A stretch of 64,000 nt of DNA, from contig OZ076409.1 of assembly GCA_964187785.1 (NCBI GenBank), positions 70,558,001-70,622,000 on the forward strand, written 5' to 3'. The notes under the pieces are model-generated. The model was not told the origin of the DNA. It saw nothing but the letters and a program-made list of their open reading frames with translations, and searched no databases. A program made the translations under genes and the position numbers. Shown one piece after another: positions 1-45,731 of this stretch (position 1 is the stretch's first letter; every line of letters starts with the position of its first letter). Origin of the DNA: Amphiscolops sp. MND2022. Its lineage: Eukaryota.

Positions 1-10
1 GCCGTCGGTT

Positions 11-7200: not shown

Positions 7201-7259
7201 TTAATGTTTTCTCCGGATATGGGATTTATTATAAAAGGATTCTCCTCTAACATAAAATT

Positions 7260-10593: not shown

Positions 10594-10671
10594 AGGCATG
10601 CCGAGGTATGCCTTTCGACGATCATATAACAACCATGCCCCTGCAAGGTCACTTTTTGCGGTAGCAGCTAG
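10594..10671 (+). other. 3' terminus of the RepHel element: hairpin plus CTAG
   Basis: 9-bp stem with one G-T pair at 10594-10613, CTAG at 10668-10671. Nearly the same sequence as the family C end (24566-24642). Confidence 0.85.
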
Positions 10672-11960
10672 GTGCCCGGATTTCTATTCGATAAAGTATG
10701 TGGCGCGCCTTGGGTAGGGTCCCTTGCGCGCTCTTGGGTATGGTGTTCACCAGCTAGGAAACAGGGGTCGATTTTTCGGGATCTCCTAAACTAGCCACAC
10801 GATTTGGCTGAAATTTGGCACACGTACTCCCCTCGGCACGGTGAAGATGATTTCCTACTGACGTTTTTCCCGCAAAATTTTTTTTGTTGTCCAAAATAAC
10901 GGTTTTTGGGGTAAAATTTTGAATTTTTTTTAAATTTTATCTTATATCTCGCCACGGGTTTACGCTAGCGCTTCAAAACCCTGCTAAAGAAAGCTTGCAA
11001 ACTGTCTCAGGAATGCGGTGTAAAATTTTCAGCTCAATCGGACTCAAACTCGGGGAGATATAGCGTTTTTCCGGAGCGGGGGGGTTTCATTTTTCTAACG
11101 GTCCAGCTTATCTTAGCCATTTTTTCGAAAATGTACTCGCCTAAAGGCCTCCCCTGGCCGGTTTTATTCCCAGCAAAACCATTTGGCCCTAAATACGGAG
11201 TTTCAGCGTTCCAGCATTCCCGGGCGAAAAGTTGTGGGACTTAGAAAAGTTCAAAAATTTTCAAAAAATTTTTTTTCCGTTTTCCGCCCTCCCCCCCGAG
11301 GGGAAAAGACCCCCCAACCAGTAATTTGAGTGAATTCATGTGGAAAGGCCATGTTTAGAGGAGAAAAATCCCGTTTAAATCGTCTTTTTATCTTTATTCA
11401 ACGTTGACTTATGACGTTTTGAAGGTGATGTTTGGAGGTGTGAAGCACGTGAAAAGTAAACGTTATGAGTATTTATCTGATCTGAAAGCCATTGAGATGC
11501 AACCTGTTTTGCTCAAAACGTAATTCAATTCAGTTTGGTAGTCAATCAACACCCTTTGTTGTCATTTGACATCTTTTTTTGTTGATATAAGAAAAAATTT
11601 CGTGTATTTATTCATTTTTTTCTCATCAAATAACTTGAAACAGTTGAGTACATTCCATCCCCCCTTCACGGGGGAGATGAGAATGTACTCGCAAAAAGCC
11701 CCGAACTACGGCCCTTACCTTCCTGAGCTACGCAGTATAAAGATTGCATATTGGTTCCGACATTTTGATAGAGTTATATCTTGGTAATCTGTCTGGGTAT
11801 GCAGAAAAACCAGCACGTGCTTTTTTATACCAAGTTGCTCACAACGACATTTATTTTATATCAACGCCCCCATATTTATCAACGCCCCCCGTCCGTGGGC
11901 ATGCCGAGGCATGCCCTTCGACGACGTATACCAAGATATACATCGAGCGCGTTAGCCTAG
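10672..11960 (+). mobile_element. Family B unit (1289 bp)
   Basis: Starts GTGCCCGGATTTCTATTC, ends hairpin...GTTAGCCTAG. Near-identical copies at 29879 and 31168. Confidence 0.85.
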
Positions 11961-14900
11961 GTGCGGGGGGGAAACCCCAACAAATATATTGGAGGATTCG
12001 GGTAGGGTCCTGAATCCGATTTTAACTCTAATAGCTATCGATAGGAAATCGTGCAAAAATTTCGGGATCTCGTGATCTAACCATAGGATTTTAAAGTTGG
12101 AGCGGCCCCCACCAGATTTTCCAAAGTTATTCGCCCCCCACCGGGTTCCAGCGTGATTGAAATATTTTGACGGGGTACACGGGCGACCGTTAGGGGTCAT
12201 TTTGGGGGTAAAATTTATATCCGGTCGCATAACTTTTTTCCTGTTGGTTTAAAACTTTGGGACCCTGCTAAAAGTTTCTTGACCGTGTTGCAGTGGCTCC
12301 GGAGGTCCAAACCAAATTTTTCTATCTTGAAGCTATCTCCAAGTACCCCCCCGCCCAAACCGTTATTTTTCCGGAAACGCAGGTTTTTGACCCGGAAGGA
12401 GTCGTCTGAGCGCGGGTTCGTTAGGTGATGTATTGGGGACGGCCTTGAGACGAAGCGGGGGACATGTAGTTTGCCGACCCCAATTTACCCCCCGGACGGG
12501 AAATGACCGTTATATGAGCGGGAAAATTGCCCCCCTCCACGTTTAACCGCTATTTCCGGTGTGAAGGAGTGGGAGTAGCGCGTCGGGTGTCATATATCAA
12601 AAGTAGGTTTAGACAAGGACCTATCGGAAACATGTGGTTTGGGACCCCCTGGACCAACCCGTTAGCGGGAAATGGCGCTTCCGCCTCCTTTTTTTACTGC
12701 TAAAACCGTAAAATGGGCATTGAGGGGTAAATATCTCGTGAACGCGTGGAGCAATCGTGTCCTTCACTACTACAAGGTTTCATGCCCATCATATGGTGCC
12801 TTCAGGGGGGCAAACAGATTTCCGCTATCTATCACCGTTACCGACTTGGCCCCCCAGCCTAACCGCTATGTTACCGGAAATGTCACTTTTTGAGCCCAAA
12901 GGGTCAGTCCGAGCGCGGCATCGTTAGGTAACTTATTGTAGTACTCAATGAGACGAGTTGGGGGATATAGTTTCAGTCACCCCCCGTTACCCCTTGTGAC
13001 CGGAAATGACCGTTATGTTGGTAAAATTGCGATTTTTGTACTTTTTGAAGGGCAATTAGGTGCGGAAGGAGTGGTAATAGGTGCTTGGACACTATATGAG
13101 GTAAGGGAGGACGTGAGGCGAGCATTCGGAAATAACCGTTATGTTGACCCCAAAGTCCCCCTGGTACCGTAAACGACCGGAAATGGTCAAATTTTGTGTC
13201 TATTGAGTACAAATGTTTGGTGTTTTATGAATAAAAGTACCTATTAGGTGTTTCGACGGTCTGCAGTAGTGAACATAGTCATGAAACCTTACGGGGGGTA
13301 ACGGTATATAGCACCGGAAGTCCAAACCGCTGGAGACAGGATAGGTTTTTTGGTTTTAAAATGTCTTTCGGCGTACTTTTGTTGACTATTATGGACTATT
13401 TTTAAAAATTAAAGTTTTTCCATATAGTTTCAGAGACTCCGAAACCTCAACCAACATAACCGTTACCTTATGATAGCCTTTCAAGTTGGCCTGGTGTCAA
13501 CTTGGAGGGGCTATCCTTCAAAAATCGTTAATCAAGTGTGTTTTTGGGTATGTTTGTATCAATTTAGAATCAATTAGAGCTTCAAGAAAAGTTTGCCAAC
13601 GACAAAAACTATGTCGTGATGATTCCGTTATTAGAATGATGGTTAACAAAATGTTGATAAAGTTAATTTTTTACATTTCAAATGTGTCCTAAAAGCCAGA
13701 AAACCTCTTTACCAAAAAAATGGTATTGATTGAATTGTATATAACAGGTAATAAAAGTTCAAATTGATTATTACGTTTCATTATTCAAGCTAAAACTTCA
13801 TAACAAAGTTTTATTAACGTCAACGCCACACACTTTACATCAACGCCCACCGTCTGTGGGCATGCTGAGGCATGCCCTTCGACGACGTATACCAAATACA
13901 TACCTAACGACGCCCGTACATCCCGGGCTAGGTGCGGGGGGGTAACCCCAACAAAGATATTGGAGGATTCGGGTAGGGTCCTGAATCCGATCTTAGTACC
14001 GCCAGCTATCAGTAGAAAATTTCCCTCAAAAACCGGGATCTCGGGAACTAACCGTAGGATTTGAAAGTTGGAGCGGCCCCCACCAGATTTTCCCGAATAG
14101 ATCGCCCCCCACCGGGCTCCATACCCCGGAAAATTTTTTTTTGGCCACACGGGCGACAGTTAGGGGGTCATTTTAGGGGTAAAATTCATATTGGTCCATA
14201 TAACTTTTTTCCTGTTGGTTTAAAAGTTTGGGAACCCTGCTAAAGGTTTTTCGACCATGTTGCAAGGGCTCCGGAGGTGCAAACCAAATTTTTCTATCTT
14301 GAAGCTATCTCCAAGTACCCCCCCGCTCAAACCGTTATTTTTCCGGAAACGCAGGTTTTTGACCCGGAAGGAGTCGTCTGAGCGCGGGGTCGTTAGGTGA
14401 TGTTTTGGGGACGGCCTTGAGACAAAGTGGGGGACAAGTAGTTTGCCAACCTCAATTTACCCCCCGGACGGGAAATGACCGTTATATGAGCGTGAAAAAT
14501 GCCCCCCTCCACGTTTTACCGCTATTTCCGGTGTGAAGGTGTGGGAGTAGCGCGTCGGGTGCCATATATCAAAAGTAGGTTTAAACAAGGAACTATCGGA
14601 AACATGTGGTTTGGGACCCCCTGGACCAACCCGTTAGCGGGAAATGGGGCTTCCGCCTCGTTTTTTTACGGTTAAAAACGGAAAACGGGCATTGAGGGAT
14701 AAATATCTCGTGAACGCGTGGAGCTACGGTGTCCTTCACTACTACAAGGTTTCATACCCATGATATGGTGCCTTCAGGGGGGCAAACAGATTTCCGCTAT
14801 CTATCACCGTTACGGACTTGGCCCCCCAGCCTAACCGCTATGTGACCGGAAATGTCACTTTTTGAGCCCAAAGGGTCGGTCCCAGCCAGGGAACGTTAGA

Positions 14901-17900
14901 TAACTTTTTGTAGTACTCATTGAGACGAGTTGGGGGACATAGTTTCAGTCACCCCCCGTTACCCCTTGTGACCGGAAATGACCGTTATGTGGGTAAAATT
15001 GGGATTTTTGTACTTTTTGAAGGGCAATTAGGTGCGGAAGGAGTGGTAATAGGTGCTTGGACACTATATGATGGAATGGAGGACGTGAGGCGAACATTCA
15101 GACATAACCGTTATGTTGACCCTAAAGTCCCCCTGGTACCGTAAACGACCGGAAATGGTCAAATTTTGTGTCTATTGGGTACAAATGTTTGGTATTTTGT
15201 AAAAAAAAAGTATCTATTAGGTGTTTCGACGGTCTGCAGTAGTGAACATAGTTATGAAACCTTGTGGGGGGTAACGGTATATAGCACCGGAAGTCCAAAA
15301 CGTTAGAGACGGGATAGTTGTTTCCGTTTTAAAATGTCTTTCGGCGTACTTTTGTCAACTAATATGGAATATTTTTTAAAATTAAAGTTTTTCCATATAG
15401 TTTCAGAGACTCCCAAACCTCAAACAACATAACCGTTACCTTATGATAGCCTTTCAAGTTGGCCTGGTGTCAACTTGGAAGGGCTATCCTTCAAAAATCG
15501 TTGATCAAGTGTGTTTTTGGGTATGTTTGAATCATTTTAGAATCAATTAGAGCTTCAAGAAATGTTTGTCAACGACAAAAACTATGTCGTGATGATTCCG
15601 TTATTAGAGTAATAGTTAACAAAATATTGATTAAGTTGATTTTTTACATTTCAAAAGTGTCCTAAAAGCCAGAAAACCTCTTTACCAAACAAATGGTATT
15701 GATTGGATTGTATATAACAGGTAATAAAAGTTCAAATTGATTATTACGTTTTATTATGTAAGCTGAAACGTCATATTATAGTTTAATTAACGTCAACGCC
15801 ACATACTTTACACCAACGCCCACCGTCTGTGGGCATGCCGAGGCATGCCCTTCGACGACGTATACCAAATACATTTCATATCTACACCCTAACCGCGGTA
15901 GCAGCTAGGTGCGGGGGGGTAACCCCAACAAAGATATTGGAGGATTCGGGTAGGGTCCTGAATCCGATCTTAGTACCGTCAGCTATCAGTAGAAAATTTC
16001 CCTCAAAAACCGGGATCTCGGGAACTAACCGTAGGATTTGAAAGTTGGAGCGGCCCCCACCAGATTTTCCCGAATAGATCGCCCCCCACCGGGCTCCATA
16101 CCCCGGAAAATTTTTTTTTGGCCACACGGGCGACAGTTAGGGGGTCATTTTAGGGGTAAAATTCATATTGGTCCATATAACTTTTTTCCTGTTGGTTTAA
16201 AAGTTTGGGAACCCTTCTAAAGGTTTTTCGACCATGTTGCAAGGGCTCCGGAGGTGCAAACCAAATTTTTCTATCTTGAAGCTATCTCCAAGTACCCCCC
16301 CGCTCAAACCGTTATTTTTCCGGAAACGCAGGTTTTTGACCCGGAAGGAGTCGTCTGAGCGCGGGGTCGTTAGGTGATGTTTTGGGGACGGCCTTGAGAC
16401 AAAGTGGGGGACAAGTAGTTTGCCAACCTCAATTTACCCCCCGGACGGGAAATGACCGTTATATGAGCGTGAAAAATGCCCCCCTCCACGTTTTACCGCT
16501 ATTTCCGGTGTGAAGGTGTGGGAGTAGCGCGTCGGGTGCCATATATCAAAAGTAGTTTTAGACAAGGATCTATCAAAAACATGTGGTTTGGGACCCCCTG
16601 ACCCAACCCGTTAGCGGGAAATGGGGCTTCCGCCTCCTTTTTTTTCGGTTAAAAACGGAAAATGGGCATTGAGGGGTAAATATCTCGTGAACGCGTGGAG
16701 CTACGGTGTCCTTCACTACTACAAGGTTTCATACCCATGATATGGTGCCTTCAGGGGGGCAAACAGATTTCCGCTATCTATCACCGTTACGGACTTGGCC
16801 CCCCAGCCTAACCGCTATGTGACCGGAAATGTCACTTTTTGAGCCCAAAGGGTCGGTCCCAGCCAGGGAACGTTAGATAACTTTTTGTAGTACTCATTGA
16901 GACGAGTTGGGGGACATAGTTTCAGTCACCCCCCGTTACCCCTTGTGACCGGAAATGACCGTTATGTGGGTAAAATTGGGATTTTTGTACTTTTTGAAGG
17001 GCAATTAGGTGCGGAAGGAGTGATAATAGGTGCTTGGACACTATATGATGGAATGGAGGACGTGAGGCGAACATTCAGACATAACCGTTATGTTGACCCT
17101 AAAGTCCCCCTGGTACCGTAAACGACCGGAAATGGTCAAATTTTGTGTCTATTGGGTACAAATGTTTGGTATTTTGTAAATAAAAGTATCTATTAGGTGT
17201 TTCGACGGTCTGCAGTAGTGAACATAGTCATGAAACCTTGTGGGGGGTAACGGTATATAGCACCGGAAGTCCAAAACGTTAGAGACGGGATAGGTTTTTC
17301 CGTTTTAAAATGTCTTTCGGCGTACTTTTGTCAACTAATATGGAATATTTTTTAAAATTAAAGTTTTTCCATATAGTTTCAGAGACTCCCAAACCTCAAA
17401 CAACATAACCGTTACCTTATGATAGCCTTTCAAGTTGGCCTGGTGTCAACTTGGAAGGGCTATCCTTCAAAAATCGTTGATCAAGTGTGTTTTTGGGTAT
17501 GTTTGAATCATTTTAGAATCAATTAGAGCTTCAAGAAATGTTTGCCAACGACAAAAACTATGTCGTGATGATTCCGTTATTAGAGTAATAGTTAACAAAA
17601 TATTGATTTAGTTGATTTTTTACATTTCAAAAGTGTCCTAAAAGCCAGAAAACCTCTTTACCAAACAAATGGTATTGATTGGATTGTATATAACAGGTAA
17701 TAAAAGTTCAAATTGATTATTACGTTTTATTATGTAAGCTGAAACGTCATATTATAGTTTAATTAACGTCAACGCCACATACTTTACACCAACGCCCACC
17801 GTCTGTGGGCATGCCGAGGCATGCCCTTCGACGACGTATACCAAATACATTTCATATCTACACCCACCCGCGGTAGCAGCTAGGTGCGGGGGGGAAACCC

Positions 17901-20900
17901 CAACAAAATTTTTGGAGGATTCGGGTAGGGTCCTGAATCCGAGTTCAGTGCTGCCAGCTTTCGTTAAGAAAATTTGGATAGGATTCGGGATCTCGTGATC
18001 TAACCATAGGATTTTAAAGTTGGAGCGGCCCCCACCAGATTTTCCGAAAATTAGCGCCCCCCACCGGGTTCCATACCCCGGAAAATTTTTTTCTGGCCAC
18101 ACGGGCGACCGTTAGGGGGTCATTTTAGGGGTAAAATTCATATTGGGCCACATAACTTTTTTTCTGTTGATTTAAAAGTTTGGGAACCCTACTAAAGGTT
18201 TTTTGACCGTGTTGCAGGGGCCCCGGATGTCCAAACCAAATTTTTCTATCTTGAAGCTATCTCCAAGTACCCCCCCGCCCAAAACGTTATTTTTCCGGAA
18301 ACGCAGGTTTTTGACCCGGAAGGAGTCGTCGGAGCGCGGGGTCGTTAGGTGATGTATTGGGGACGGCCTTGAGACGAAGTGGGGGACATGCAGTTTGCCA
18401 ACCCCAGTTTACCCCCCGGACGGGAAGTGACCGTTATATGAGCGGGAAAAATGCCCCCCTCCACGTTTTACCGCTATTTCCGGTGTGAAGGAGTGGGAGT
18501 AGCGCGTCGGGTGCCATATATCAAAAGTAGGTTTAAACAAGGACCTATCGGAAACATGTGGTTTGGGACCCCCTGGACCAACCCGTTAGCGGGAAATGGG
18601 GCTTCCGCCTCCTTTTTTTACGGTTAAAAACGGAAAATGGGCATTGAGGGGTAAATATCTCGTGAACGCGTGGAGCTACGGTGTCCTTCACTACTACAAG
18701 GTTTCATACCCATGATATGGTGCCTTCAGGGGGGCAAACAGATTTCCGCTATCTATCACCGTTACGGACTTGGCCCCCCAGCCTAACCGTTAAGTGACCG
18801 GAAATGTCACTTTTTGAGCCCAAAGGGTCGGTCCCAGCCGGGGAACGTTAGGTAACTTATTGTAGTACTCATTGAGACGAGTTGGGGGATATAGTTTCAG
18901 TCACCCCCCGTTACCCCTCGAGACCGGAAATGACCGTTATGTGGGTAAAAGTGCCATTTTTGTACTTTTTGAAGGGCATTTAGATGCGGAAGGAGTGGTA
19001 ATAGGTGCTTGGACACTATATGAGGTAAGGGAGGACGTGAGGCGAGCAGTCAGACATAACCGTTATGTTGACCCTAAAGTCCCCCTGGTACCGTAAACGA
19101 CCGGAAATGGTCAAATTTTGTGTCTATTGGGTACAAATGTTTGGTATTTTGTAAATAAAAGTATCTATTAGGTGTTTCGACGGTTTGCAGTAGTGAACAT
19201 AGTCATGAAACCTTGTGGGGGGTAACGGTATATAGCACGGGAAATCCGAACCGTTGGAGACAGGATAGGTTTTTTGGTTTTAAAATGTCTTTCGGCGTAC
19301 TTTTGTCGACTATTATGGACTATTTTTAGAAATTAAAGTTTTTCCATATAGTTTCAGAGACTCCGAAACCTCAACCAACATAACCGTTACCTTATGATAG
19401 CCTTTCAAGTTGGCCTGGTGTCAACTTGGAAGGGCTATCCTTCAAAAATCGTTAATCAAGTGTGTTTTTGGGTATGTTTTTATCATTTTAGAATCAATTA
19501 GAGCTCCAAGAAAAGTTTGCCAACGACAAAAACTATGTCGTGATGATTCCGTTATTAGAATGATGGTTAACAAAATGTTGATAAAGTTGTTTTTTTTCTA
19601 TTTCAAATGTGTCCTAAAAGCCAGAAAACCTCTTTACCAAAAAATGGTATTGATTGAATTGTATATAACAGGTAATAAAAGTTCAAATTGATTATTACGT
19701 TTCATTATTCAAGCTAAAACTTCATAACATAGTTTAATTAACGTCAACGCCACACACTTTACATCAACGCCCACCGTCTGTGGGCATGCCGAGGCATGCC
19801 CTTCGACGACGTATACCAAATACATACCCAAACGACGCCCGTACATCCCGGGCTAGGTGCGGGGGGGTAACCCCAACAAAATTTTTGGAGGATTCGGGTA
19901 GGGTCCTGAATCCGAGTTCAGTGCTGCCAGCTTTCGTTAAGAAAATTTGGATAGGATTCGGGATCTCGTGATCTAACCATAGGATTTTAAAGTTGGAGCG
20001 GCCCCCACCAGATTTTCCGAAAATTAGCGCCCCCCACCGGGTTCCAGCGTGATTGAAATATTTTGACGGGGTACACGGGCGACCGTTAGGGGTCATTTTG
20101 GGGGTAAAATTTATATCCGGTCGCATAACTTTTTTCCTGTTGATTTAAAAGTTTGGGAACCCTACTAAAGGTTTTTTGACCGTGTTGCAAGGGCTCCGGA
20201 GGTCCAAACCAAATTTTTCTAGCTTGAAGCTATCTCCAAGTACCCCCCCGCCCAAAACGTTATTTTTCCGGAAACGCAGGTTTTTGACCCGGAAGGAGTC
20301 GTCTGAGCGCGGGGTCGTTAGGTGATGTTTTGGGGACGGCCTTGAGACGAAGTGGGGGACATGTAGTTTGTCAACCTCAGTTTACCCCCCAGACAGGAAA
20401 TGACCGTTATATGAGCGGGAAAATTGCCCCCCTCCACGTTTTACCGCTATTTCCGGTGTGAAGGAGTGGGAGTAGCGCGTCGGGTGCCATATATCAAAAG
20501 TAGGTTCAGACAAGGACCTATCGGAAACATGTGGTTTGCGACCCCCTGGCCCAACCCGTTAGCAGGAAATGGGGCTTCCGCCTCCTTTTTTTACGGTTAA
20601 AAACGGAAAATGGGCATTGAGGGGTAAATATCTCGTGAACGCGTGGAGCTACGGTGTCCATCACTACTACAAGGTTTCATACCCATGATATGGTGCCTTC
20701 AGGGGGGCAAACAGATTTCCGCTATCTATCGCCGTTACCGACTTGGCCCCCCAGGCTAACCGTTAAGTGACCGGAAATGTCACTTTTTGAGCCCAAAGGG
20801 TCGGTCCCAGCCGGGCAACGTTAGGTAACTTATTGTAGTACTCAATGAGACGAGTTGGGGGATATAGTTTCAGTCAACCCCCGTTACCCCTTGGGACCGG

Positions 20901-21851
20901 AAATGACCGTTATGTGAGTAGAATTGCAATTTTTATACTCTTTGAAGTGTATTTAGGTGCGGAAGGAGTGGTAATAGGTGCTTGGACACTATATGATGTA
21001 ATGGAGGTCGTGAGGAGAGCATTCGGAAATAACCGTTATGTTGACCCCAAAGTCCCCCTGGTACCGTTAACGACCGGAAATGGCCAAATTTTGTGTCTAT
21101 TGGGTACAAATGTTTGGTATTTTATGGATAAAAGTACCTGGAAGGTGTTTTAAAGGCCTCCAGAAGTGAACATAGTCATGAAACCTTGTGGGGGGTAACG
21201 GTATATAGCACCGGAAGTCCAAACCGTTGGTCACAGAATAGGTTTTTTGGTTTCAAAATGTCTTTAGGCATAGTTTTGTGGGTTGAATCGTCATAATATC
21301 AACTAATACGGACTTTTTTCGGAAATAAAATTTTTTCACATTAGTTTCAGGGACCTCCAATGCTTCAGTCAACATAACCGTTACATTTTGATAGCCTTTC
21401 AAGTTGACCTGGTGTCAACTTGGAAGGGCTATCCTTCTAAAATCGTTAATCAAGAGTGTTTTTGGGTAGGTATATGTTGCATTAGTACCATTTAGAGCTT
21501 CATCAACAGTTTGCCAACGGCAAAAACGATGTCGTGATAATTCCGTTATAAAAATATTAGTTAACAAATTGTTTTCAAAGTTGATTTTTTCCATTAAAAA
21601 TGTGTCCTAATGCCACCAAATTGAATAAAATAATAAATGGTATTGACTAAAACTAAATAACAATGAAAAAGAAGATCAACATTTTTATTAGGTCTCATTA
21701 TGGAAGCTGAAACCTCACGTTTTAGTTTAATTAACGTCAACGCCACATACTTTACATCAACGCCCACCGTCTGTGGGCATGCCGAGGCATGCCCTTCGAC
21801 GACGTATACCAAACAACCTCCATATCTACACCCACCCGCGGTAGCAGCTAG
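11961..21851 (+). mobile_element. Five tandem family A units (1971-1995 bp)
   Basis: Starts at 11961, 13932, 15909, 17884, 19857, each GTGCGGGGGG(G/T)AA... Each ends hairpin...GCTAG. Confidence 0.9.
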
Positions 21852-32454: not shown

Positions 32455-34518
32455 GTGGTCACGAGTATACTCTACCAGAATATTTGCGAGGTGGGGGAGG
32501 GGCCCCGAGTCCGAGCCTCCTGTCAGATATCTATCTAGAGTGAGGGGTCCAGAAAAACAGCGATTTTGGAATTGAGCCATACGATTTGAATGAAACTTTG
32601 TGTGTAGGTAGATCTCAAAATTATAAGAACTTTTTCCCCCTGGCAAAACATGGTTGGAACATTGTGTCGGAAATTATGAACAAATGATCGGTTTTTTCAC
32701 CTATTTTCGGCATATTTACACCTCGGTACAACCAGCCTGTGGATACAATTGGCTGAAACTTTGCATGCGAGGCATAAATGAAGAAAAGTGTTTGCATGTC
32801 AAAAATCATTAGGCTGCTGATACTAGGCTGGGAGATAAAAGTGGAAATATAAACGGAAAATTGTGAAAAACCCGGTCATTGCGTCATAACTTCCGAACTT
32901 TTGTATTGATTGTGTTTACTTCAGCGGTAGCAGTACTTTGGAGGTACTTTCATCATCATGTGGTCAGGATAAAAAATAAAAAATAAAAAAGTTCTTCAAA
33001 AGTTCTACAAAATTCTAAAATTCAAGAATTTTTAAAAAAAAAAGATTTTCTCATTTTTCGATGCTTTTTCACATTTTGAGCACGAAAATGACGTAGCCCT
33101 GCACTTACGATCACTACTTGAAGGATTTTCACATACCTCTTCCTCAATGTGTGGCCACTTTACAGAACTAATTGTTCTTTTGTTAGAAGTCCCGCCGTTG
33201 TTTGCGGAAAAAAGTTCGAGAAACAAATTATCCGTTGTTCCTGAGAAATGCGAAGCAGTTCGCAGGAACAACGGATAGAATTAACAAAGTACCCGGGTGG
33301 TTGGAATGAGAGATATGTAATCATCTGATAACTGATGAAAAACAGAGTTTTTCATCAGTTGAAAAGACGAAAAACGTTTCCATGGATGTTACCTAAAGTA
33401 AACAGTACTAGTAACATGTTGTAAAATATAGTTCCACGGAAGCCACCCACCCATTCTGGTAATTAGTTTCCTTGCCTCCACTGGGTGGTCACGGGTATAC
33501 CCTACCACAATATTTGCGAGGTGGGGGAGGGGCCCCGAGTCCGAGCCGTGCTGTCAGATTTCTATCTAGGCTGGAAGGGCCATAAAAACAGCGATTTTGG
33601 AATTGAGCCATACGATTTGAATGAAATTTTGTGTGTGGGTAGATTTTAAAATTATAAGAACTTTTTCTCCCTGGCAAAACATGGTTGCAACACTGTGTTG
33701 GAAGTTATGAACAAATGATCGGTTTTTTCACCTATTTTCGGCATATTTACACCTCGGTACAACCAGCCTGTGGATACAACTGGCTGAAACTTTGCATGCG
33801 AGGCATAAATGAAGTGAAGTGTTTGCATGTCAAAAATCATTAGGCTGGTGACACTAGGCTGAGAGATAGAAGTGGAAAAATAAGTGGAAAATTGTGAATT
33901 CTCCGGTCATTGCGTCATAACTTCCGAACTTTTGTATTGATGATGTTTCCTTCAGCGGTAGCAGTACTTTGGAGATGGTTTCATCATCACGTAGTGAGGA
34001 TAAAAAATAAAAAATAAAAAAGTTCTTCAAAAGTTCTACAAAAATTCTAAAATTTAAGAATTTTTCAAAAAAAAAAGATTTTCTCATTTTTCGATGCTTT
34101 TTCACATTTTGAGCACGAAAATGACGTAGCCCTGCACTTACGATCACTATTTGAAGGATTTTCACATACCTCTTCCTCAATGTGTGGCCACTGTACAGAA
34201 CTAATTGTTCTTTTGTTAGAAGTCCCGCCATTGTTTGCGGAAAAAGGTTCAAGAAACAACTTCTCCGTTGTTCCTGAGAAATGCGAAGCAGTTCGCAGGA
34301 ACAACGGATAGAAATAACGAAGTACCCGGGTGGTTGGAATGAGAGATATGTAATCAGTCGTTAAACTGATGAAAAACAGAGTTTTTCATCAGTTGAAAAG
34401 ACGAAAAACGTTTCCATGGATGTCACTCAAAGTGAACAGTACTGGAAGCGTATTTTAAAATTTAATTCGACAGAAGCCGCCCGCCCACTCTGGTAATTAG
34501 TTTCCTTGCCTCCACTGG
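32455..34518 (+). mobile_element. Two family G units (1030 and 1034 bp; CTGG ends; joint at 33484/33485)
   Basis: Both start GTGGTCACG and end CCTCCACTGG. They lack the GGGCATGCC hairpin but carry a perfect 14-bp stem (33330-33360). Confidence 0.82.
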
Positions 34519-35915
34519 GTGGTCGGGTATTTTTTTTTTACTCGTATATGACGTTTGCGAGGCTTTGGGGAGGGCCCCGTGCCGAGCCTGTACCGAAATT
34601 GGCCACATGTAGAAATCTGGCACTAAAATGCGAGATCTCAAAAAGTAGCCGTTAGAAATTTCTGAAAATTTGCATGTGGCTCTGAATCAATGAGTAATGA
34701 AAAAGTGTAGAAGTGACCACCTCTGAAAAAATGGTCCTTGTTGCACTTTTTGCGCAATTTCTGTCGCATTGTTGCGTTTTTTATGTCATTTTCGAATTTG
34801 GAGGCAAAAAACTCATAGATGCTTTATTCCTAGCGTACCAAGTGTGGAGCATGAAAAGTTGCAGCATCTTCAATAACGTATGCTGAGAAAATTTGGTTGC
34901 CCTGTGGTTACCCCCCACAGAGATAGAGGGGTGCTTCCGGTTACTTTTGACCCGCTAAATTTGGGAAACTGCTAATTTTCGTAAAGAAGCCGTAGATTTA
35001 GCGTGTCCACACCCTGCTGAAGTATTGTTAGGCATTTTAAGATAGATCCGATTACATGCGTTCAGTTCACCCCCCATCACCCCCTGGACCAGAAATGAAT
35101 ATTTTTGTGTACTTTAAGACCGGAAGTCTCCATTTTCACCGGTAAGGAGTCCTTGTACGAGCAACTAGCAAGACATCAAAATTGAAGGAAAACCTGGGGT
35201 CAACTTAGTGACCACGTGTTGTCCAGTCATGGGTTCCGCTAAGACCGGAAATAGGGTCAAAACCCCCCTTTTGGTCGTTTTTTTATCAGTTTGACCAGAG
35301 TTTTTTCCACGTTCAAGTCGCAATGCACATCAAACAGTGTGAACATAAACTACATATTTATTGAGTAGACGTACCTGACACTGCCATATACCGGAAGTAA
35401 CCCCCCTGACCGGAAGTTGTCAATTTTGACCAGAAATGGTCCAAAAAGTAGCGATAAATCAGTTTCTCACTGGTTTTTAAGGTCAAGTTTTTACTTTTTT
35501 TCTTTCTTATTGTTTTTTTTTCCTACTGAAAAATATACTTTGTAGCTTGTTTGGCTAAAGTTCTGGAAAGGGATCACCTTTATCACCCCCGATAGCCTTC
35601 CAAGTTGACCTTGGGTCAATCTTGAAGGCTATCAGTTCAGAAAACGAAAAATTGTGGAAATTGGGTTTCTCCTTTTTGTTGTAATTTTTTCCATAAAGTC
35701 AATATGTTAAATAAAGCTTTTGTTCACCTGAGTGATCTGAAACTTGTCCAGAGGTGTCACACACACGAATACCATTTCAAGTTGAAGTAAACATATGAGG
35801 GTAGTATTAGACAACATCACACACAATTACCAACGCCCACCGTCCGTGGGCATGCCGAGGCATGCCCTTCGACGACGTATGCCAAATAGCGCCACAGGGC
35901 GCCCCTATTTGCTAG
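34519..35915 (+). mobile_element. Family H unit (1397 bp), diverged relative of D
   Basis: Shares GCGTGTCC(A/G)CACCCTGCTGAAG and GATCACCTTT(A/G)TCACCCCC..GATAGCCTTCCAAGTTGAC blocks with D. Standard 3' hairpin + CTAG. Confidence 0.8.
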
Positions 35916-38900
35916 GTGGTCAGTGCTGTTGCGTTCATTTTTTTCCGGCCGTGGGGGAGGGCCCCTCTGAGGCCGGTCATTTTTCAGGTAACAGCTTTCT
36001 TATACAAAAAAGCGGGAAAAAACCTCAGTGCTCAAATCCCAACCGTCAGAATGAGCTGAAATTTGGCATGTAGCTAGTACATTGCAAATGATTAGGATGG
36101 GTTATAACGCTATGTTTGGCAAAATTGGTTTTGTTGCATTTTTTTTGTCATATAGGGCCAAAAATGGCCTTTTTTGCGTATTTTTTGCTTGACTAGCTAA
36201 TAACTCGCGTTGGGTTGGTACTAGCGATACGGGTGTGGGGTATGGAATTGAAAGATTACCAAGTACCTTGCTGATGACGTTATTTGATTTCCGCTCACAT
36301 CACCGCCCACGCCGGAAATGCCCAATTTGTCACTTCCGGTCGCAATTTTTGACTTTTTTGGATGGAGTTAAAACCCATTTCCGGTGTGAAGGAGTGGGTT
36401 GAGCGCTTCGACCCCAATATACTAAAAGTAGGTTTAGACAAAGTCCTATTAGGAAAAAAGTAATGTAAGCCCGTACCTATCACCCCCTCACCGGAAATAG
36501 GGGTCACGCCTCCTTTTTCTGTGTTGCAAAAGTGACATGTGCACATTTGTCCAACTCCGAAGCCCCGGAGCACCGTGGGACCCTTATACTTTCTAAACAC
36601 CTATCCCACACGCTACCGGAAGTGACCGGAAGTTTCACCGGAAATGACATCCTTGGACCGGAAATGGTCAAAAAATGACTTTTCAATGCAAAATAGACAC
36701 ATTTGGTGCGATTTTTAGGCAAAAAGCATAGTTCGTGAAACGCTTGTTGCAGTTGGAAGGGCCATTGTTCAGCAAGAATGCGTACAGCATTACGTAGCAC
36801 ATCAAGTAGTTGATACTTTTTCGTCCATAATATCCTTAGGACCGGAAATGGCCATTTTTGAATCGGAAACTTCTTCAGCTTGATTTTTAACAGGTTTTTC
36901 CGCAATATTAGCGTAGGAATTGCTCGTCGGATGCTGTAGGTCTATTTTAAAACTAGCTAACTGCTTCTTAGAAATGTATTTCAGATTTCAGAAGTCCCAA
37001 CCAATTCCAGAATACCGGAAATAAGAGTAATTGCCTCCTTTATGACCTTTGAATAATAAATTGTTAAAATCCGCATATTATTTTTTTCCACACTTGTTGC
37101 TGAGATTATATCTAAGCAATAACATGTGCTTGTCATGAAGTGCTGTAATGTGGGAGTTACGAATATTGCTATTTAAGAGTATTACATACGTGAATATCCG
37201 CCGTAATAAAGATTTTTTAAAACAACCACTTTTGAAGTCCTATAGATTGTCCGCACACCCGAAACAATTCAAGTTTCTAGTTTCGATTTTAAGGCTTCCG
37301 CGACTATTTAGTTGAGATGATAGTTTTCACGTTCTCTGCAAAACGTGCATTTCATTGTGTTTTTGACATTTATTGGGCTGTTTCACATTGTAATTCAAAA
37401 CTAATTGATCATACAATTTGGAACAATTGAAAATTTTCAATTGAACATTAAATGTTTTAATAGTTTCTCTTTCGTTGAAGATACTATTTTGTGGCCATTA
37501 GAACAGGTTGAATTAGTTGAATAAGTAGCCAGTGCGATACATCGTTTAATACATAGCGTTTGACATCGGTTTTTTTGCGAACAAAGACAAGCATGATTTG
37601 TTGAAAGTTTTTACCATATCGCTTCAAATGGGGTGTGACAAACAAGGAATTTCTCGTTTTATGTGCTACTCCGAAAGCAACCTGAAAACGCAAATCGATC
37701 TATTGAATTATCGAGATGAAACTAAGCATTTCAAGTCTGGATTTCAATTTAATTCTATCACTCCGGTCTATTTTTATGTCGCAAGAGTGATAAAGCGTGT
37801 TAGCAAGGTTAAACACATCGAACAATTTTAATAATAAAGCCTCCGGAAAGGGAAGAAAAAATGAGTTTTCCTGTCAAAACTATGATAACCACGTACGAAA
37901 CATCAAGTTTTTGTATTGTTCAATAGTCCAAAACGTGAATGAAGTTTTTAAATATCCAAGCGTTTCTAATCAAGCATGCGTTTCAAATGTCTGACAGGGC
38001 AGCATCGTTCTCAAAAAACATTGCTTTCAATGTGGTTTGATACCAGCAAAACGAACGTAGGCACAACCAGATTCTCAAATTTCTTGCAAAACAGCCGATT
38101 TCTTTGAAAATCCTAATTGATTTCACAGGGTATATGGTGAAACCCTGTTGGATTCCAAAAATGAAAAGCTGATTTCTTGGGTTTGCGAGATAAAAGACAA
38201 CGGGAATCTGAAAGCAAGTCATCTCAATAAAATACCTGTTGCTCTTTAAACAAATGGACTTTAGTAGTCGAAATTTTTTCTCAGACACTTTCGATCAGAG
38301 AATGTTTGAGTCCTAACGTTCGAATCAGGTTGGTTTCAGGTGGCTCGAAGTGCCAGCTGAACCAACCTTTCAAATAAAGAAAAACCCCACATCTCCCTTC
38401 ATGCCACGCTACCCCGTATAGCGTTTCAACTTGACAGAAGTTGGAACGTTTGATTTTGGCGTCGCTTGGGATTGACACACCAGTGTTGATACTAAATTTG
38501 GCAAAGAGAAATCGCAGAAATGATTGTTTCTTTTTTTCCCTTTGATTTAGTCTGTCGAGCGTACAAAGCAGTTTGGGAAACTAACTTGCATTTCCACTGA
38601 ACGAAAAAAAGTAGTAGCCTTGCAAACTCCTGGAAGAAATTGAATCAGGTTTTCCTATTTGTGAGATCAGCTGTCACTCAATTATCAATTACTTTTTTAA
38701 AAATTTTTAGGAACAACTAACCTAACTCTGCTCGACTCTCTTGAATAATGCAACAATCGTTTACTGATCTGTACTCGTGAGAAAAAAATCAACTGCAGGT
38801 CCAAAAACAATCTATATATCTTTGGTTTATTCCGTGCAAAGCTTTTTTTCACACCATGTGACTCAACTATAACATGTATGTAATGAAACCAATAACACCT

Positions 38901-41900
38901 TCAACTATCAACGCCCACCGTCCGTAGGCATGCCGAGGCATGCCTTTCGACGACGCGCGCCGGAAACAATCTAACGGCGCCACCCGCTTCTGGGTGGTCA
39001 GTGCTGTTGCGTTCATTTTTTTCCGGCCGTGGGGGAGGGCCCCTCTGAGGCCGGTCATTTTTCAGGTAACAGCTTTCTTATACAAAAAAGCGGGAAAAAA
39101 CCTCAGTGCTCAAATCCCAACCGTCAGAATGAGCTGAAATTTGGCATGTAGCTAGTGCATTGCAAATGATTAGGATGGGTTATAACGCTATGTTTGGCAA
39201 AATTGGTTTTGTTGCATTTTTTTTGTCATATAGGGCCAAAAATGGCCTTTTTTGCGTATTTTTTGCTTGACTAGCTAATAACTCGCGTTGGGTTGGTACT
39301 AGCGATACGGGTGTGGGGTATGGAATTGAAAGATTACCAAGTACCTTGCTGATGACGTTATTTGATTTCCGCTCACATCACCCCCCACGCCGGAAATGCC
39401 CAATTTGTCACTTCCGGTCGCAATTTTTGACTTTTTTGGATGGAGTTAAAACCCATTTCCGGTGTGAAGGAGTGGGTTGAGCGCTTCGACCCCAATATAC
39501 TAAAAGTAGGTTTAGACAAAGTCCTATTAGGAAAAAAGTAATGTAAGCCCGTACCTATCACCCCCTCACCGGAAATAGGGGTCACGCCTCCTTTTTCTGT
39601 GTTGCAAAAGTGACATGTGCACATTTGTCCAACTCCGAAGCCCCGGAGCACCGTGGGACCCTTATACTTTCTAAACACCTATCCCACACGCTACCGGAAG
39701 TGACCGGAAGTTTCACCGGAAATGACATCCTTGGACCGGAAATGGTCAAAAAATGACTTTTCAATGCAAAATAGACACATTTGGTGCGATTTTTAGGCAA
39801 AAAGCATAGTTCGTGAAACGCTTGTTGCAGTTGGAAGGGCCATTGTTCAGCATGAATGCGTACAGCATTACGTAGCACATCAAGTAGTTGATACTTTTTC
39901 GTCCATAATATCCTTAGGACCGGAAATGGCCATTTTTGAATCGGAAACTTCTTCAGCTTGATTTTTAACAGGTTTTTCCGCAATGTTAGCGTAGGAATTG
40001 CTCGTCGGATGCTGTAGGTCTATTTTAAAACTAGCTAACTGCTTCTTAGAAATGTATTTCAGAAGTCCCAACCAATTCCAGAATACCGGAAATAAGAGTA
40101 ATTGCCTCCTTTATGACCTTTGAATAATAAGTTGTTAAAATCCGCATATTATTTTTTTCCACACTTGTTGCTGAGATTATATCTAAGCAATAACATGTGC
40201 TTGTCATGAAGTCCTGTAATGTGGGAGTTACGAATATTGCTATTTAAGAGTATTACATACGTGAATATCCGCCGTAATAAAGATTTTTTAAAACAACCAC
40301 TTTTGAAGTCCTATAGATTGTCCGCACACCCGAAACAATTCAAGTTTCTAGTTTCGATTTTAAGGCTTCCGCGACTATTTAGTTGAGATGATAGTTTTCA
40401 CGTTCTCTGCAAAACGTGCATTTCATTGTGTTTTTGACATTTATTGGGCTGTTTCACATTGTAATTCAAAACTAATTGATCATACAATTTGGAACAATTG
40501 AAAATTTTCAATTGAACATTAAATGTTTTAATAGTTTCTCTTTCGTTGAAGATACTATTTTGTGGCCATTAGAACAGGTTGAATTAGTTGAATAAGTAGC
40601 CAGTGCGATACATCGTTTAATACATAGCGTTTGACATCGGTTTTTTTGCGAACAAAGACAAGCATGATTTGTTGAAAGTTTTTACCATATCGCTTCAAAT
40701 CGGGTGTGACAAACAAGGAATTTCTCGTTTTATGTGCTACTCCGAAAGCAACCTGAAAACGCAAATCGATCTATTGAATTATCGAGATGAAACTAAGCAT
40801 TTCAAGTCTGGATTTCAATTTAATTCTATCACTCCGGTCTATTTTTATGTCGCAAGAGTGATAAAGCGTGTTAGCAAGGTTAAACACATCGAACAATTTT
40901 AATAATAAAGCCTCCGGAAAGGGAAGAAAAAATGAGTTTTCCTGTCAAAACTATGATAACCACGTACGAAACATCAAGTTTTTGTATTGTTCAATAGTCC
41001 AAAACGTGAATGAAGTTTTTAAATATCCAAGCGTTTCTAATCAAGCATGCGTTTCAAATGTCTGACAGGGCAGCATCGTTCTCAAAAAACATTGCTTTCA
41101 ATGTGGTTTGATACCAGCAAAACGAACGTAGGCACAGCCAGATTCTCAAATTTCTTGCAAAACAGCCGATTTCTTTGAAAATCCTAATTGATTTCACAGG
41201 GTATATGGTGAAACCCTGTTGGATTCCAAAAATGAAAAGCTGATTTCTTGGGTTTGCGAGATAAAAGACAACGGGAATCTGAAAGCAAGTCATCTCAATA
41301 AAATACCTGTTGCTCTTTAAACAAATGGACTTTAGTAGTCGAAATTTTTTCTCAGACACTTTCGATCAGAGAATGTTTGAGTCCTAACGTTCGAATCAGG
41401 TTGGTTTCAGGTGGCTCGAAGTGCCAGCTGAACCAACCTTTCAAATAAAGAAAAACCCCACATCTCCCTTCATGCCACGCTACCCCGTATAGCGTTTCAA
41501 CTTGACAGAAGTTGGAACGTTTGATTTTGGCGTCGCTTGGGATTGACACACCAGTGTTGATACTAAATTTGGCAAAGAGAAATCGCAGAAATGATTGTTT
41601 CTTTTTTTTCCCTTTGATTTAGTCTGTCGAGCGTACAAAGCAGTTTGGGAAACTAACTTGCATTTCCACTGAACGAAAAAAAGTAGTAGCCTTGCAAACT
41701 CCTGGAAGAAATTGAATCAGGTTTTCCTATTTGTGAGATCAGCTGTCACTCAATTATCAATTACTTTTTTAAAAATTTTTAGGAACAACTAACCTAACTC
41801 TGCTCGACTCTCTTGAATAATGCAACAATCGTTTACTGATCTGTACTCGTGAGAAAAAAATCAACTGCAGGTCCAAAAACAATCTATATATCTTTGGTTT

Positions 41901-42065
41901 ATTCCGTGCAAAGCTTTTTTTCACACCATGTGACTCAACTATAACATGTATGTAATGAAACCAATAACACCTTCAACTATCAACGCCCACCGTCCGTAGG
42001 CATGCCGAGGCATGCCTTTCGACGACGCGCGCCGGAAACAATCTAACGGCGCCACCCGCTTCTGG
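35916..42065 (+). mobile_element. Two near-identical family I units (3078 and 3072 bp; CTGG ends; joint at 38993/38994)
   Basis: Direct repeat with very few differences (e.g. a 7-nt ATTTCAG duplication near 36978-36991 in copy 1 only). A-T variant of the 3' hairpin. Confidence 0.88.
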
Positions 42066-44443
42066 GTGGTCGGGGCGCTCTCCCAACCTCTTCCGCCGCC
42101 TCGGGGAGGGTCCTGATTGGCGGCACCCCTTATGGAAAACTTACTGTTAGAAACGCACCAGTGTAATGCTGATTTCGAAAACCACCCGTATGATTTTGCT
42201 CAAATTTTGCATGTAGCTCCCAAATTCCAATACAAGAACTAATTCCTACTGCCATTTTTCCGGGAAAACTCAAAAAATTGGTCAAAAATGACATTTTCTG
42301 AGTGAAAAATGGCCATTTTTTGACTTTTTTATTTTTGATCGGCTATAACTTTTTCCAGGGTGCTCGGATCGAAAAAAGTTTGTATAGGTAAAGTTGTTTG
42401 GCACTTCGAGTAGAACTCGTAGACAACTTTTGGTTGAGATCGGATGAAAATTGACTGAGAAATAACCGAAAAACCATCGATTTTTTGAAAAAAAATTTGA
42501 CACACTAGTATGACTCTGCCGTTTTTTGGCCAAAGTTCTTTCTAGAACCTCGTCTAAAGTCCTCCCCTGGCTGAATTACCTCCCAGCAAAACCATTTGGC
42601 CCATTTGCCGAAGTTTCAGCGTTCCAGCATTCCCCGGGTAAAAGATAAATGACTTAGAATTTTTACAAAAAATTTTCAAAAAAAAATTTTTTCTTCAAGC
42701 TTCCCAAAGTCAAGGAACTTCCACACAACTAGTATTGCAAGTGAATGCATGTGGAAAGTGCTTGAATAGACGAGAAAAATGAGCTATAGAACGACTCTGT
42801 AGCTTAACCTGACGTTGACTTATGACAATTTGAGTGCGTGCTTGCTATGTGGTGAAATTGAGAAACAACCTAAAATGAAAGCTAAGTCTGATCTAAAACT
42901 TACCGAATTGCTTTTATTCAGCCCCAAAGCTGTTCAATTGCCCTATGTAGTGCAGCAACACTATCCAAGGCTTTTTAGGACGTTTTTAAGATGTCATTAT
43001 GTTCTTTTTGGACAGTTTTTTTTTGTACAAATAGGACTTTATTTTTCGGGACCTAACACTTTTTGCCAAAAAAGTCAAACTTCGTCCACACAACTTAGAT
43101 TGCAAGTGAATGCATGCGGAGAGTGCATGAAGTGATGAGGAAAATGAGCTATAGAACGCCCGTTTCCGCCAACTTGACATGGACTTATAAGAGTTTGAAA
43201 AATCACAAAAAAAATGAACAACAATTCACTAACAGTGAGTTTGTAGTAAATGGCCCATATTTCCATACACAAGATTCTCAGCACAATTCTATACCTTTTC
43301 GTTTTTGTTGTCCGTGATTGTGCAACAAATAAGTATTGGTAAAAGTTTCTGTAAAACATCGCCGGAAAGAGAAAAATGCGGAGTTTATGAGTAATTTTGT
43401 TTGAAAAATGACAAAATAGTCTATCTCTGCCGTTTCAGCACAAATTTTTTAAAAAAAGACGCCCAGTAGGTAACCCATGGGCTAATTTCGTCTCAACAAA
43501 ACGGTTGGGGTCATTTGTCGCAGTTTTAGCTTTATAGCATTCTCCGGGTAAAAGTTGTTGAACTTAGAAAATTTTTGAAATTTTTTCAAATTTTTTTTTT
43601 AACTTCAGGCGGCCCAAAGTCAAGAAACTTCCACACAACTAGGATTGCAAGTAGATGCATGTGGAAAGCCCAGTAATTGGGGAGAAAAATGCCGTTTAGA
43701 ACGTCTCTTTATCGTAACTTGATGTTGACTTATGATTCTTTAAATGGGAGCTTGATTTGAGGTTAAGAAGTCAAAGTGTGTAAATGGAACGTAAGTCTGG
43801 TCAAAAACTCATTGAAATACATGCAATGAACCTCAACTTATCCTCAATTACAGTTGTCTAGTGCAAAGGTCTTTCAAAGTTGTTTCACTTCTTTTGATAA
43901 GTGTTGATGGTATAAACCATCAGTTATAGAGAAACACGTAAGTACATTCTCATCTCTCCCCATCGGGGGAGATGAGAATGTACTCACCAAAGGTCAAAAC
44001 TACTAAATGCCTTTTTTCTGTACAATTTTATGTCACTGTCGAAACAAACATAAACAAATTAGTTTCCGACTCCTCCTTGGGGTTTTGGTTTGACTTCTGT
44101 AAAAAAAAGGGGTACGAGGACTTGGAGATCTTTTAAGTGTTCCAAAAGAGACCTCCTATTTCACACCGTGGAAAACTTGAAGACATTTGTCATGAAATCA
44201 CCTACTAGGCTTCTCTCTGAGTACGCAAGTTCAATAAGTAACACATTTTATCTTCCATATTTGCTCCGATGACCAGGATTGGAAACTAAATTAACCCAAG
44301 GTACTTAGCCAAAACGAGCAATACCAACTTTTGATTGAAAACCTCATCACAGTTTTTCTTTGAAAATTACCTTCATTGACTTCTCAATTTATCAACTCAA
44401 CCTCCTTAAGCGGCCCTATTTTGACACAAGCCTGCAGCGCTAG
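42066..44443 (+). mobile_element. Family J unit (2378 bp) with internal duplications and an atypical 3' end
   Basis: Bounded by CTGG|GTG and CTAG|GTG. The CCACACAACT...TTGCAAGT block occurs at 42721, ~43087 and 43631. No GGGCATGCC hairpin. Confidence 0.75.
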
Positions 44444-45731
44444 GTGGCCGGAAATTTTTTTTTTCATCAAAATCTTTGCCATTGGGGGAGGGGCCCCGGA
44501 TGGCCAGTAGTACGGGATAGCTTCCTACCAAATCCAGATGGAAAAAACGTGATTTCGGAAACTAGCCGTCAGAATTTGCTCAAATTTTGCATACGGCTTC
44601 CTATGACAATCCTAAGAACTAATCCCTACTGGCATTTTGCCCAAAAAACGCAAAAAGTTGGTCAAAATCTTAGTTTTTTGGTCAAAAAATGGCAATTTTT
44701 CGAAAAAATTTTTTTTCAGAGACAATTACTCGTAACTGGTTCACCCAGCGCAAAAACGCCTAGCTGATTTATTTTTGGGCACTTCATGAGGAGTGCGTAT
44801 ACAAATTTTCGTCCAGATCGGAAAAAAATTCACTAAGTATTAGCCGGAATTCGGACGCATTTTTTCGCAAATTTTTGAAAACCTAGTCTATCTCTGCCGT
44901 TTTTTGCCCAGATTTTTTTCCAGGTCCTCTCCTAAAGGCCTCCCCTGGCCGGTTTACTTCCCAGAAAAACCATTTGGCCCTAAATACGGAGTTTCAGCGT
45001 TCTAGCATTCCCGGGCGAAAAGATGTGGGACTTAGAAAAAATTCAAAATTTTTCAAAAATTTTTTTTTTCGTTTTCCGGCCCCCCAATGAAGGGGAACGA
45101 CCCCCCAACGAGGATTTTTGGTGAATTCACGTGGAAAGGCCTTGTTTTGTGGATCAAATTGCCGTTTAGAGCGACTTTTTATCTTAACTTGACGTTGACC
45201 TCTGTCGTTTTGAATTTGATATTAGTATGTGTTGAGCATGTGAAAAGTTGATGATTTCAGTTGTTCTCTCGTGTTCAAGCCATTAAGATACAAGCGGTAG
45301 TGATCAAAATGTGATTTATCGCAATTTGGTGGTGCTTTTGGTGTATTTTGATTCTTTTAAATAAAAAGTTGTTCTTTATATATTTGGTGTATTGATTCAA
45401 ATGAACAAGAAACAGTTGAGTACATTTCATCTCCCCCCTTGTGGGGGAGATGAGGATGTACCCGCTAAATGACACGCACAATGGGCCAATTTTACTTTTA
45501 TGCGACGTTTCCTAGGCTTTTGCGCAAGCCCACTACTATTTAGACTGGTTTCCTTTTCTTTTACTCCAAAATTTTCCGTACTAACCACCTTACGCACCAC
45601 CAGCTCATCGTAACATCTGTAACGTCAACGCCACATACTCGCATCAACTCCCACCGTCCGTGGGCATGCCGAGGCATGCCCTTCGACGACGTATGCCAAA
45701 TAGCGCCACAGGGCGCCCACTCTTTCGCTAG
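44444..45731 (+). mobile_element. Family K unit (1288 bp)
   Basis: Starts GTGGCCGGAAATTTTTT like 62811. Middle is B/F-like, 3' part is E-like. Confidence 0.82.

Follow-up and report, generated by a model that had tools for sequence, protein, structure and literature searches.

The 64,000-nucleotide (nt) stretch analysed here, referred to as the window, spans positions 70558001-70622000 on contig C1 of a 1.07-Gb eukaryote assembly. It contains the 3′ part of an autonomous Helitron element encoding RepHel, followed by non-coding units, each 1.0-3.1 kb long, arrayed head to tail. These units meet at joints of the form CTRG|GTG, and a short hairpin located shortly after each joint, just inside the 5′ end of the unit, is the subject of this study. 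The array and a representative hairpin from each of its families are as follows.

10672..64000, + strand: mixed head-to-tail array of non-autonomous units with 30 joints CTRG|GTG
10703..10731, + strand: 5′ hairpin, family B; joint at 10672; further copies at 29919 and 31208
11994..12017, + strand: 5′ hairpin, family A; joint at 11961; 9-base-pair (bp) stem including one G·T; present 14 times in the window
21886..21906, + strand: 5′ hairpin, family C; joint at 21852; 7-nt loop; 5′ end as in the autonomous element
24680..24699, + strand: 5′ hairpin, family D; joint at 24643
26073..26101, + strand: 5′ hairpin, family E; joint at 26024; core 56 nt from the end
27365..27380, + strand: 5′ hairpin, family F; joint at 27328; weak (-1.7 kcal/mol), extended via tandem G·A
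32488..32519, + strand: 5′ hairpin, family G; joint at 32455; weak, the tandem G·A register being better
34560..34589, + strand: 5′ hairpin, family H; joint at 34519
35945..35976, + strand: 5′ hairpin, family I; joint at 35916
42093..42123, + strand: 5′ hairpin, family J; joint at 42066
44478..44504, + strand: 5′ hairpin, family K; joint at 44444

Exactly one hairpin follows each of the 30 joints, 35-56 nt inside the 5′ end. An earlier sequence-only reading of the window had placed it about 35-60 nt after every joint, and the 11 sites noted there were correctly positioned, lie on the + strand and all fold as hairpins. The pattern GGGKAGGGNCCY occurs 29 times in the window, always on the + strand and never on the - strand, against an expectation of 0.03 (0/100 shuffles); the family C hairpin, the 7-nt loop of which lies outside this pattern, brings the total to 30. 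Genome-wide, the joint-plus-motif pattern gave 4,691 matches and its reversed control gave none. The loop had been described as (T/G)AGGG in all families, which holds for the majority; however, the loop is better written NN-GGG-N, where NN is mostly TA or GA but TC, TT, AA and AGAC are also found, so that GGG-N is the constant part, and one family lacks the motif. Nor are the families unrelated: internal blocks that are 69-82% identical are found among B, E, F, J and K, and likewise between A and C and between D and H. A second, more terminal hairpin was rejected as a further feature, being found in only six of 32 types at z<-1.5. Pairing of the loop with the 3′ motif, in the manner of an IS200/IS605-type guide, received no support; variant loops keep the same 3′ motif. 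T-loops follow CTGG at 68 of about 2,826 joints and G-loops at 459 of 1,865, a contrast that family clustering explains equally well.

The pairing of the arms was examined using 163 sites grouped into 22 arm types, later enlarged to 32 types with more loci. Over the 22 types, the mean fold energy was -7.6 kcal/mol for own arms versus -4.9 kcal/mol for arms swapped between types (0/200,000 permutations), and own arms were also superior under strand-neutral scoring (0/100,000) and in the 32-type set (0/100,000). An alignment of 47 rows, obtained from 59 distinct ends after the removal of near-duplicates, returned a consensus fold in which a 4-bp core was recovered and the fourth pair, below the GGG/CCY helix, covaries (CG 21, GC 10, TG 5, GT 4, AT 1, unpaired 6). 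The covariation score was 0.253, compared with 0.170 for shuffled alignments (0/500); slid partners reached no more than 0.191. The outer arms change register via bulges and are therefore captured poorly by a sequence alignment (46% paired). Within family A, one double change was found at window +127,501. The covariation of the arms that the earlier reading had called for is thus present in both the swapped-arm permutations and the fourth pair. Its family-specific complementary arms are likewise upheld, except that F and G extend solely via tandem G·A mismatches, so that the true pairing of G is probably another than the one noted earlier. Tandem G·A beneath the stem occurs in 13 of the 32 types versus 10% of swapped pairs.

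A preference for the + strand is evident in the individual pairs. The loop-near variable pairs 3 and 4 of the 32 types include 16 G·T/T·G and no A·C/C·A, in keeping with the proposal that G·T pairs favour this strand. Across the genome, 4,691 matches have C/T as the third closing base and 17 have A/G; 13 of these 17 come from a single family, the pairing of which is shifted in register, and the 14 matches with a non-G first base are mostly an unrelated repeat. Of the 32 native types, 28 fold better on the + strand, swapped controls being + biased in 203 of 300, and the excess over these controls is moderate.

The autonomous RepHel unit of the window is 20,207 bp long, starts at window -9535 and has a family C 5′ end including the hairpin; family C is 95.7% identical to this 5′ end over 1566 bp. 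The genome contains 132 Rep matches, of which 20 were sampled across the identity range, and the hairpin is present at the 5′ end of all 20 of these other RepHel elements. The sequence-only reading had asked whether the autonomous element carries the hairpin, and in these 21 cases it does. In 19 of the 20, the nearest upstream joint is CTRG|GTG with the hairpin and no 3′-end-like sequence intervenes before the open reading frame (ORF), and the hairpin of the remaining element lies in host DNA. The Rep domains of the sampled elements are 31-89% identical (median 37%) and the arms largely follow the Rep tree, which indicates that most non-autonomous families have their own autonomous partner. 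Outside this genome, an alignment-based metagenome scan yielded nine contigs. One of these (L161) opens with an 11-bp stem, the arms of which are absent from all other collected loci, with the loop TAGGGT and the same G·T pair; the hairpin lies 1.3 kb before a 2,192-codon ORF, the Rep of which shares no more than 57% identity with any of the 21 sampled. A hairpin model built without L161 detected it with an E value of 6.7e-6 and found nothing in the other eight contigs. A metagenome scan with a single protein was blank, as were viral and prokaryote scans with the alignment, prokaryote genomes being scanned with one pattern; two viral pattern hits lacked arms and were dismissed as chance.

The elements start with GTG, both in arrays and as solo copies, and end with CTRG (CTAG or CTGG). 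The commonest 3′-end type is followed by G in 3,203 copies and by another base in 33, 25 of the G cases being GT plus a non-G base; about 98% are joint-like, running straight into the following G. At 30 non-G loci, three of which are inside arrays, the sequence continues AT in 19 and TT in nine. The AT, TT or GT flanks of terminal copies indicate that the elements end at CTAG and that the target continues with (A/G/T)T. A cut one base later (TG...CTAGN) was rejected, as terminal copies would then end in A, T or G according to the host DNA and array copies in G. The host tetranucleotide before traced insertions was CTAG in seven, CTTG in seven, CTGG in three and CTCG in two cases, giving CTNG in 19 of 26 against a background of 1.1%; GTCC, TTTC, ACAA, TTTA, ATAT, TTCT and CCAG occurred once each. 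This count excludes two array starts found using a pattern that requires CTRG, as well as L134, in which the flank is possibly a remnant of an element. The target CTNG is thus the element's own 3′ end, as in IS91. No target-site duplication was evident in the flanks of solo copies, as judged from filled sites. About 5.5 million CTNG-type sites are expected in the genome, yet nearly all copies lie at joints. Two 5′ ends (L056 and L076) start with ATG instead of GTG after CTAG, probably through point changes. Several dispersed copies (L118, L120 and L126-L129) are cut down to the last 60-270 nt, and that in L128 begins directly after a host CTAG.

The array extends beyond the window on both sides. 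A region of 202.6 kb was stitched around the window; it contains one 200-base gap, and the continuity of the array was checked over this length. Its 96 units form 20 clusters at 80% identity. Joint and Rep matches on contig C1 extend from about 70.45 to 76.46 Mb, and further clusters occur on contig C3 and, as far as its end, on contig C2. Block duplication or concatemer formation as the main mode of growth found no support in the 96 units: collinear neighbours accompany one of 26 unit pairs at ≥99% identity and none of 10 at ≥99.5%. Some local copying is seen, with six adjacent pairs at ≥98% versus 1.5 expected and 53 same-family neighbours versus 33. The dispersal of near-identical units without collinear neighbours points to array growth by unit-wise insertion. 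Small arrays may arise by read-through copying; three dimers all begin with family I, which ends in CTGG. One repeat site carries E alone in L149 and I+E in L169, a difference that fits insertion ahead of a 5′ end already in place, but also independent insertions. At the end of contig C2 (L097-L099), the array runs to the last base with 3′ ends outward and no telomere repeat is reached. On contig C1 a + array abuts a - array at 23,977,000-23,980,000 (L032), and in L140 a 3′ end is joined to an inverted 5′ end. The family A copies in the window carry a few 5′ and 3′ variants in differing combinations, a mixture that suggests recombination or template switching between copies. Short tandem duplications of the first 70-85 nt of family A, hairpin included, are found in L045 and L046.

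The remaining features of the window belong to the autonomous element.

2..6007, + strand: RepHel ORF, 3′ part, with the HUH motif HYH, the YxxKY motif and a Pif1-like helicase
6004..6070, + strand: predicted 67-nt GT-AG intron, with donor, acceptor and phase taken from the sequence
6071..6602, + strand: GIY-YIG nuclease-like segment (Pfam PF01541, E 2.4e-4, just below the cut-off)
8187..9497, + strand: 436-amino-acid ORF, predicted tandem OB-fold protein binding single-stranded DNA (RPA/CST/POT1-like)
10595..10671, + strand: 3′ end of the autonomous unit, with a subterminal hairpin and terminal CTAG

The open frame of RepHel comprises 2207 codons beginning at window -616. It gave a PIF1 match and a weak, partial Helitron_like_N match (PF14214), and its relatives number 553 representatives at E≤0.001. 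The predicted intron would fuse RepHel in frame to the GIY-YIG segment, and a C-terminal GIY-YIG domain is present above the cut-off in 11 of 17 long, distant relatives scanned. A decayed second copy of the GIY-YIG segment is recognizable at 7496-8531 (68% identical to 6237-7265). The distant relative P0023 keeps only the first tyrosine of YxxKY, the second being H. For the 436-amino-acid ORF, the Atlas leads of 0.87-0.91 are weak by Atlas's own measure, and the predicted model has a predicted local distance difference test (pLDDT) score of 66. The main 3′ hairpin (10595-10612 in the window, and about 60-80 nt before most joints) has a compensatory pair, which is G-C in 81 and A-T in 13 copies of the 202.6-kb region.

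The hairpin is a real and well supported structural signal of an unusual Helitron group. We consider it probable, by analogy with the biology of HUH enzymes, that it is an origin signal bound by RepHel on the peeled + strand to start transposition; the strand-specific hairpin proposed earlier is supported by these tests, and Rep would be the protein that binds it. RepHel would read the loop GGG-N atop a stem of any sequence and nick at CTNG^GTG, about 39 nt upstream of the hairpin. The + strand would then be peeled off as far as the 3′ CTRG and closed into a circle, the junction of which would be CTRG|GTG plus the hairpin, and the circle would insert after CTNG and before (A/G/T)T. Each insertion would yield CTRG|GT joints like the circle junction, on which later elements of any family could land, so that arrays would build up. 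The joints of the arrays have the sequence expected of the circle junction. The spacing between hairpin and end varies over 35-56 nt, which suits a flexible single strand. The Helitron transposase Helraiser has been described as cleaving only single-stranded ends, requiring the left end and forming circles (PMC4778049), and for IS91 a CTTG is described as being required beside oriIS, which has subterminal palindromes (PMC13181058).

Several observations weigh against this assignment. The cleavage determinants of Helraiser are reported to lie in the terminal 40 nt (PMC4778049), and the hairpin here starts at about that limit. One family, represented by four complete array units (window +93585, L019; window +95771, L020; L050 and L086), has transposed without the motif. 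It has a 7-bp stem from +37 and a 38-nt loop ending in GGG-C, which may be the same signal with an enlarged loop, a post-hoc reading. The 5′ end was reached in only one of the nine outside contigs, and no 5′ end was found within 10 kb in 18 traced dispersed 3′ ends (12 of 20 plus six more). Two of five covariation measures were no better than the shuffle, which itself disregards relatedness. For three of the 22 types, namely F, G and a further one, the native fold is not superior to arm shuffles, and just eight of 32 types pair best with their own arm; moreover, the types are related, so that the permutation counts overstate independence. Finally, the + lean of the swapped controls traces some of the strand signal to a single inherited G·T pair.

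Other functions for the hairpin must also be considered. The common loop TAGGG resembles a telomere repeat, and the hairpin might be read by the OB-fold protein of the element or by host proteins of the RPA, CST or POT1 type, either coating the peeled strand or priming the second strand on the circle in the manner of a plasmid single-strand origin. We regard this as unlikely. The autonomous unit encodes the predicted tandem OB protein, an OB hit is present in 11 of 13 elements having downstream sequence, and the + strand bias fits equally well; in addition, Helraiser circles are described as becoming double-stranded (PMC5876387). However, the best fold matches of the protein, to CST and RPA subunits (Foldseek E 4e-5 to 8e-4), are generic to OB folds, with low template-modelling scores (0.16-0.26), the loop variants TC, TT, AA and AGAC spoil the telomere likeness, and a priming signal needs no fixed distance from the nick. 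It is quite unlikely that the site is bound by protein as a duplex, with the inverted repeat incidental or extruded as a cruciform on both strands. The nearly invariant GGG closing bases are as expected of a sequence-read site, and some types fold equally on both strands, but pairing is kept while the arms change and admits G·T but no A·C, and bulges and variable spacing would break any helical phasing.

DNA and RNA hairpins are indistinguishable from sequence, and both G·U and the tandem G·A described above are common in RNA; nevertheless, a hairpin acting in a 5′-end transcript of the element appears very unlikely, given that its distance from the DNA end is the same in non-coding units, that no Rfam family matches 10500-45000 of the window and that HUH transposases are described as acting on single-stranded DNA (PMC4778049, PMC10288648). 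The two G-runs are the most invariant feature of the hairpin, and GGG-NN-GGG might fold into a G-quadruplex or triplex, either by itself or jointly with a second element, for recognition by the Pif1-like helicase. Pif1 helicases act on G-quadruplexes. We nonetheless hold this to be highly improbable, as the constant runs number just two, the first is paired to CCY within covarying arms, and the family with the long loop lacks it. The least credible explanation is that a GC-rich end without function was inherited from one ancestor. All families do come from one clade and have internal blocks in common, but the arms have been rewritten in matched pairs across Reps down to 31% identity, and again in L161, and old dispersed copies (L119, L148 and L150) carry stem- or loop-breaking changes; the swapped-arm tests largely refute this explanation. 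Beyond the role of the hairpin as an origin signal, a wider proposal is possible, although we hold it less likely than not: the elements may form an undescribed Helitron branch, with a fused GIY-YIG and a CTNG target, in which the resident 5′ hairpin serves as a landing signal and circles are recombined by the transposase into CTRG|GTG-hairpin joints in strong preference to the roughly 5 million plain host sites, giving integron-like mixed arrays on a megabase scale. The upstream 3′ motif, instead of the hairpin, could mark the joints as targets; in six small arrays with both first and last units scored, their relative ages gave no clear polarity.

A Rep with HUH and YxxKY motifs fused to a Pif1-like helicase places the elements in the Helitron superfamily. 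They share this RepHel architecture with HLE1, which includes Helraiser, together with a CTRR-type 3′ end (CTAG/CTGG) and a subterminal hairpin in the main 3′ type, and their solo flanks showed no evident target duplication. The predicted Rep model (pLDDT 70) had Helraiser (7LCC) as its sole match (E 8.9e-8, 14% identity), although phmmer gave no sequence match to 7LCC at E≤1 and ranked bacterial Pif1 proteins first. An OB/RPA-like gene downstream of RepHel is also reported for HLE1 (PMC11417382). Unlike HLE1, the elements begin with GTG instead of TC, insert at CTNG^(A/G/T)T (AT, TT or GT downstream) instead of A^T, and have the conserved 5′ hairpin and C-terminal GIY-YIG. HLE2 is similar in having a 5′ hairpin, here subterminal, and in an OTU domain, found here in some relatives. 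However, the HLE2 hairpin is terminal and tied to an inverted repeat, whereas asymmetric terminal inverted repeats of the HLE2 kind (8-15 bp) are absent from the 164 units compared (longest own 5′/3′ match averaging 5.8 nt versus 6.1 nt for unrelated ends). The elements also have no 5′ T and no TT/TC target, end in CTRG and encode neither DUF6570 (0/7 and 0/17 proteins) nor AP endonuclease (0/24) in the proteins scanned. Taken together, their termini fit the definition of neither HLE1 nor HLE2. The sequence-only reading set the hairpin outside the canonical Helitron 5′ end; 5′ hairpins kept by compensatory changes are already described for Helitron2 (PMC3627910).

IS200/IS605 had been offered as an analogy for the hairpin, and oriIS of IS91 is closer. 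The IS91 family (IS91, IS801 and IS1294) is described as using a tetranucleotide target beside the origin end (CTTG, CTCG, GTTC or GTCC; PMC13181058), and CTTG, CTCG and one GTCC occur here; a similar tetranucleotide at the termination end and a subterminal palindrome at the origin end are likewise shared. The present enzymes, however, are eukaryotic, helicase-fused and 2,200-2,800 amino acids long, whereas IS91 has a prokaryotic, helicase-free Y2 transposase; furthermore, the origin end here is upstream of the ORF and the arrays contain hundreds of units. The elements work like IS91, yet they are not members of it. Tandem Helitron arrays with head-to-tail joints and large clusters are reported from plant centromeres, bat, Xenopus and Hydractinia subtelomeres, where they are explained as rolling-circle concatemers or one-family satellites (PMC5876387, PMC12001565, PMC11934779); in the present arrays, exact joints separate alternating members of about 20 families, autonomous elements among them, and collinear blocks are absent. 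Paramecium Helitrons (bioRxiv 10.1101/2025.11.06.686955), compared by description only, likewise fall outside HLE1/HLE2 as a clade, the insertion of which is oriented and sequence-specific. Their end is CCAA and their target telomere repeats, and that description, as far as it goes, includes no 5′ hairpin or GIY-YIG. Unclassified elements from 19 genomes are reported by HELIANO, as is one HLE2 family that bears GIY-YIG, so that the present group may already be included there. Integron attC sites are strand-specific single-stranded hairpins with variable stems, and their mixed arrays grow unit by unit. This is an analogy only, as integrons use a tyrosine recombinase instead of an HUH enzyme, cross over inside the hairpin and carry gene cassettes, whereas the units here are transposons. 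No paper on Helitrons with GTG...CTRG ends, on a CTNG target or on mixed arrays built by self-stacking came up in the literature searches made. HLE2 and IS91 offer precedents for a 5′ hairpin per se, but in print we found none that is coupled to a conserved loop, self-stacking and an IS91-like target.

To our knowledge, left-end recognition by Helitron transposases is poorly defined, and we know of no Helitrons with other than a dinucleotide target. Annotation rules based on TC/CTRR termini or inverted repeats would miss the present elements. End recognition becomes directly testable with a 5′ signal that is defined by structure, has dozens of compensatory variants in nature and comes with cognate transposases that look intact. 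A self-stacking eukaryotic rolling-circle element with a tetranucleotide target would show a transposon building its own safe harbour, and self-stacking would offer an alternative to concatemer copying in the making of large heterochromatic arrays.

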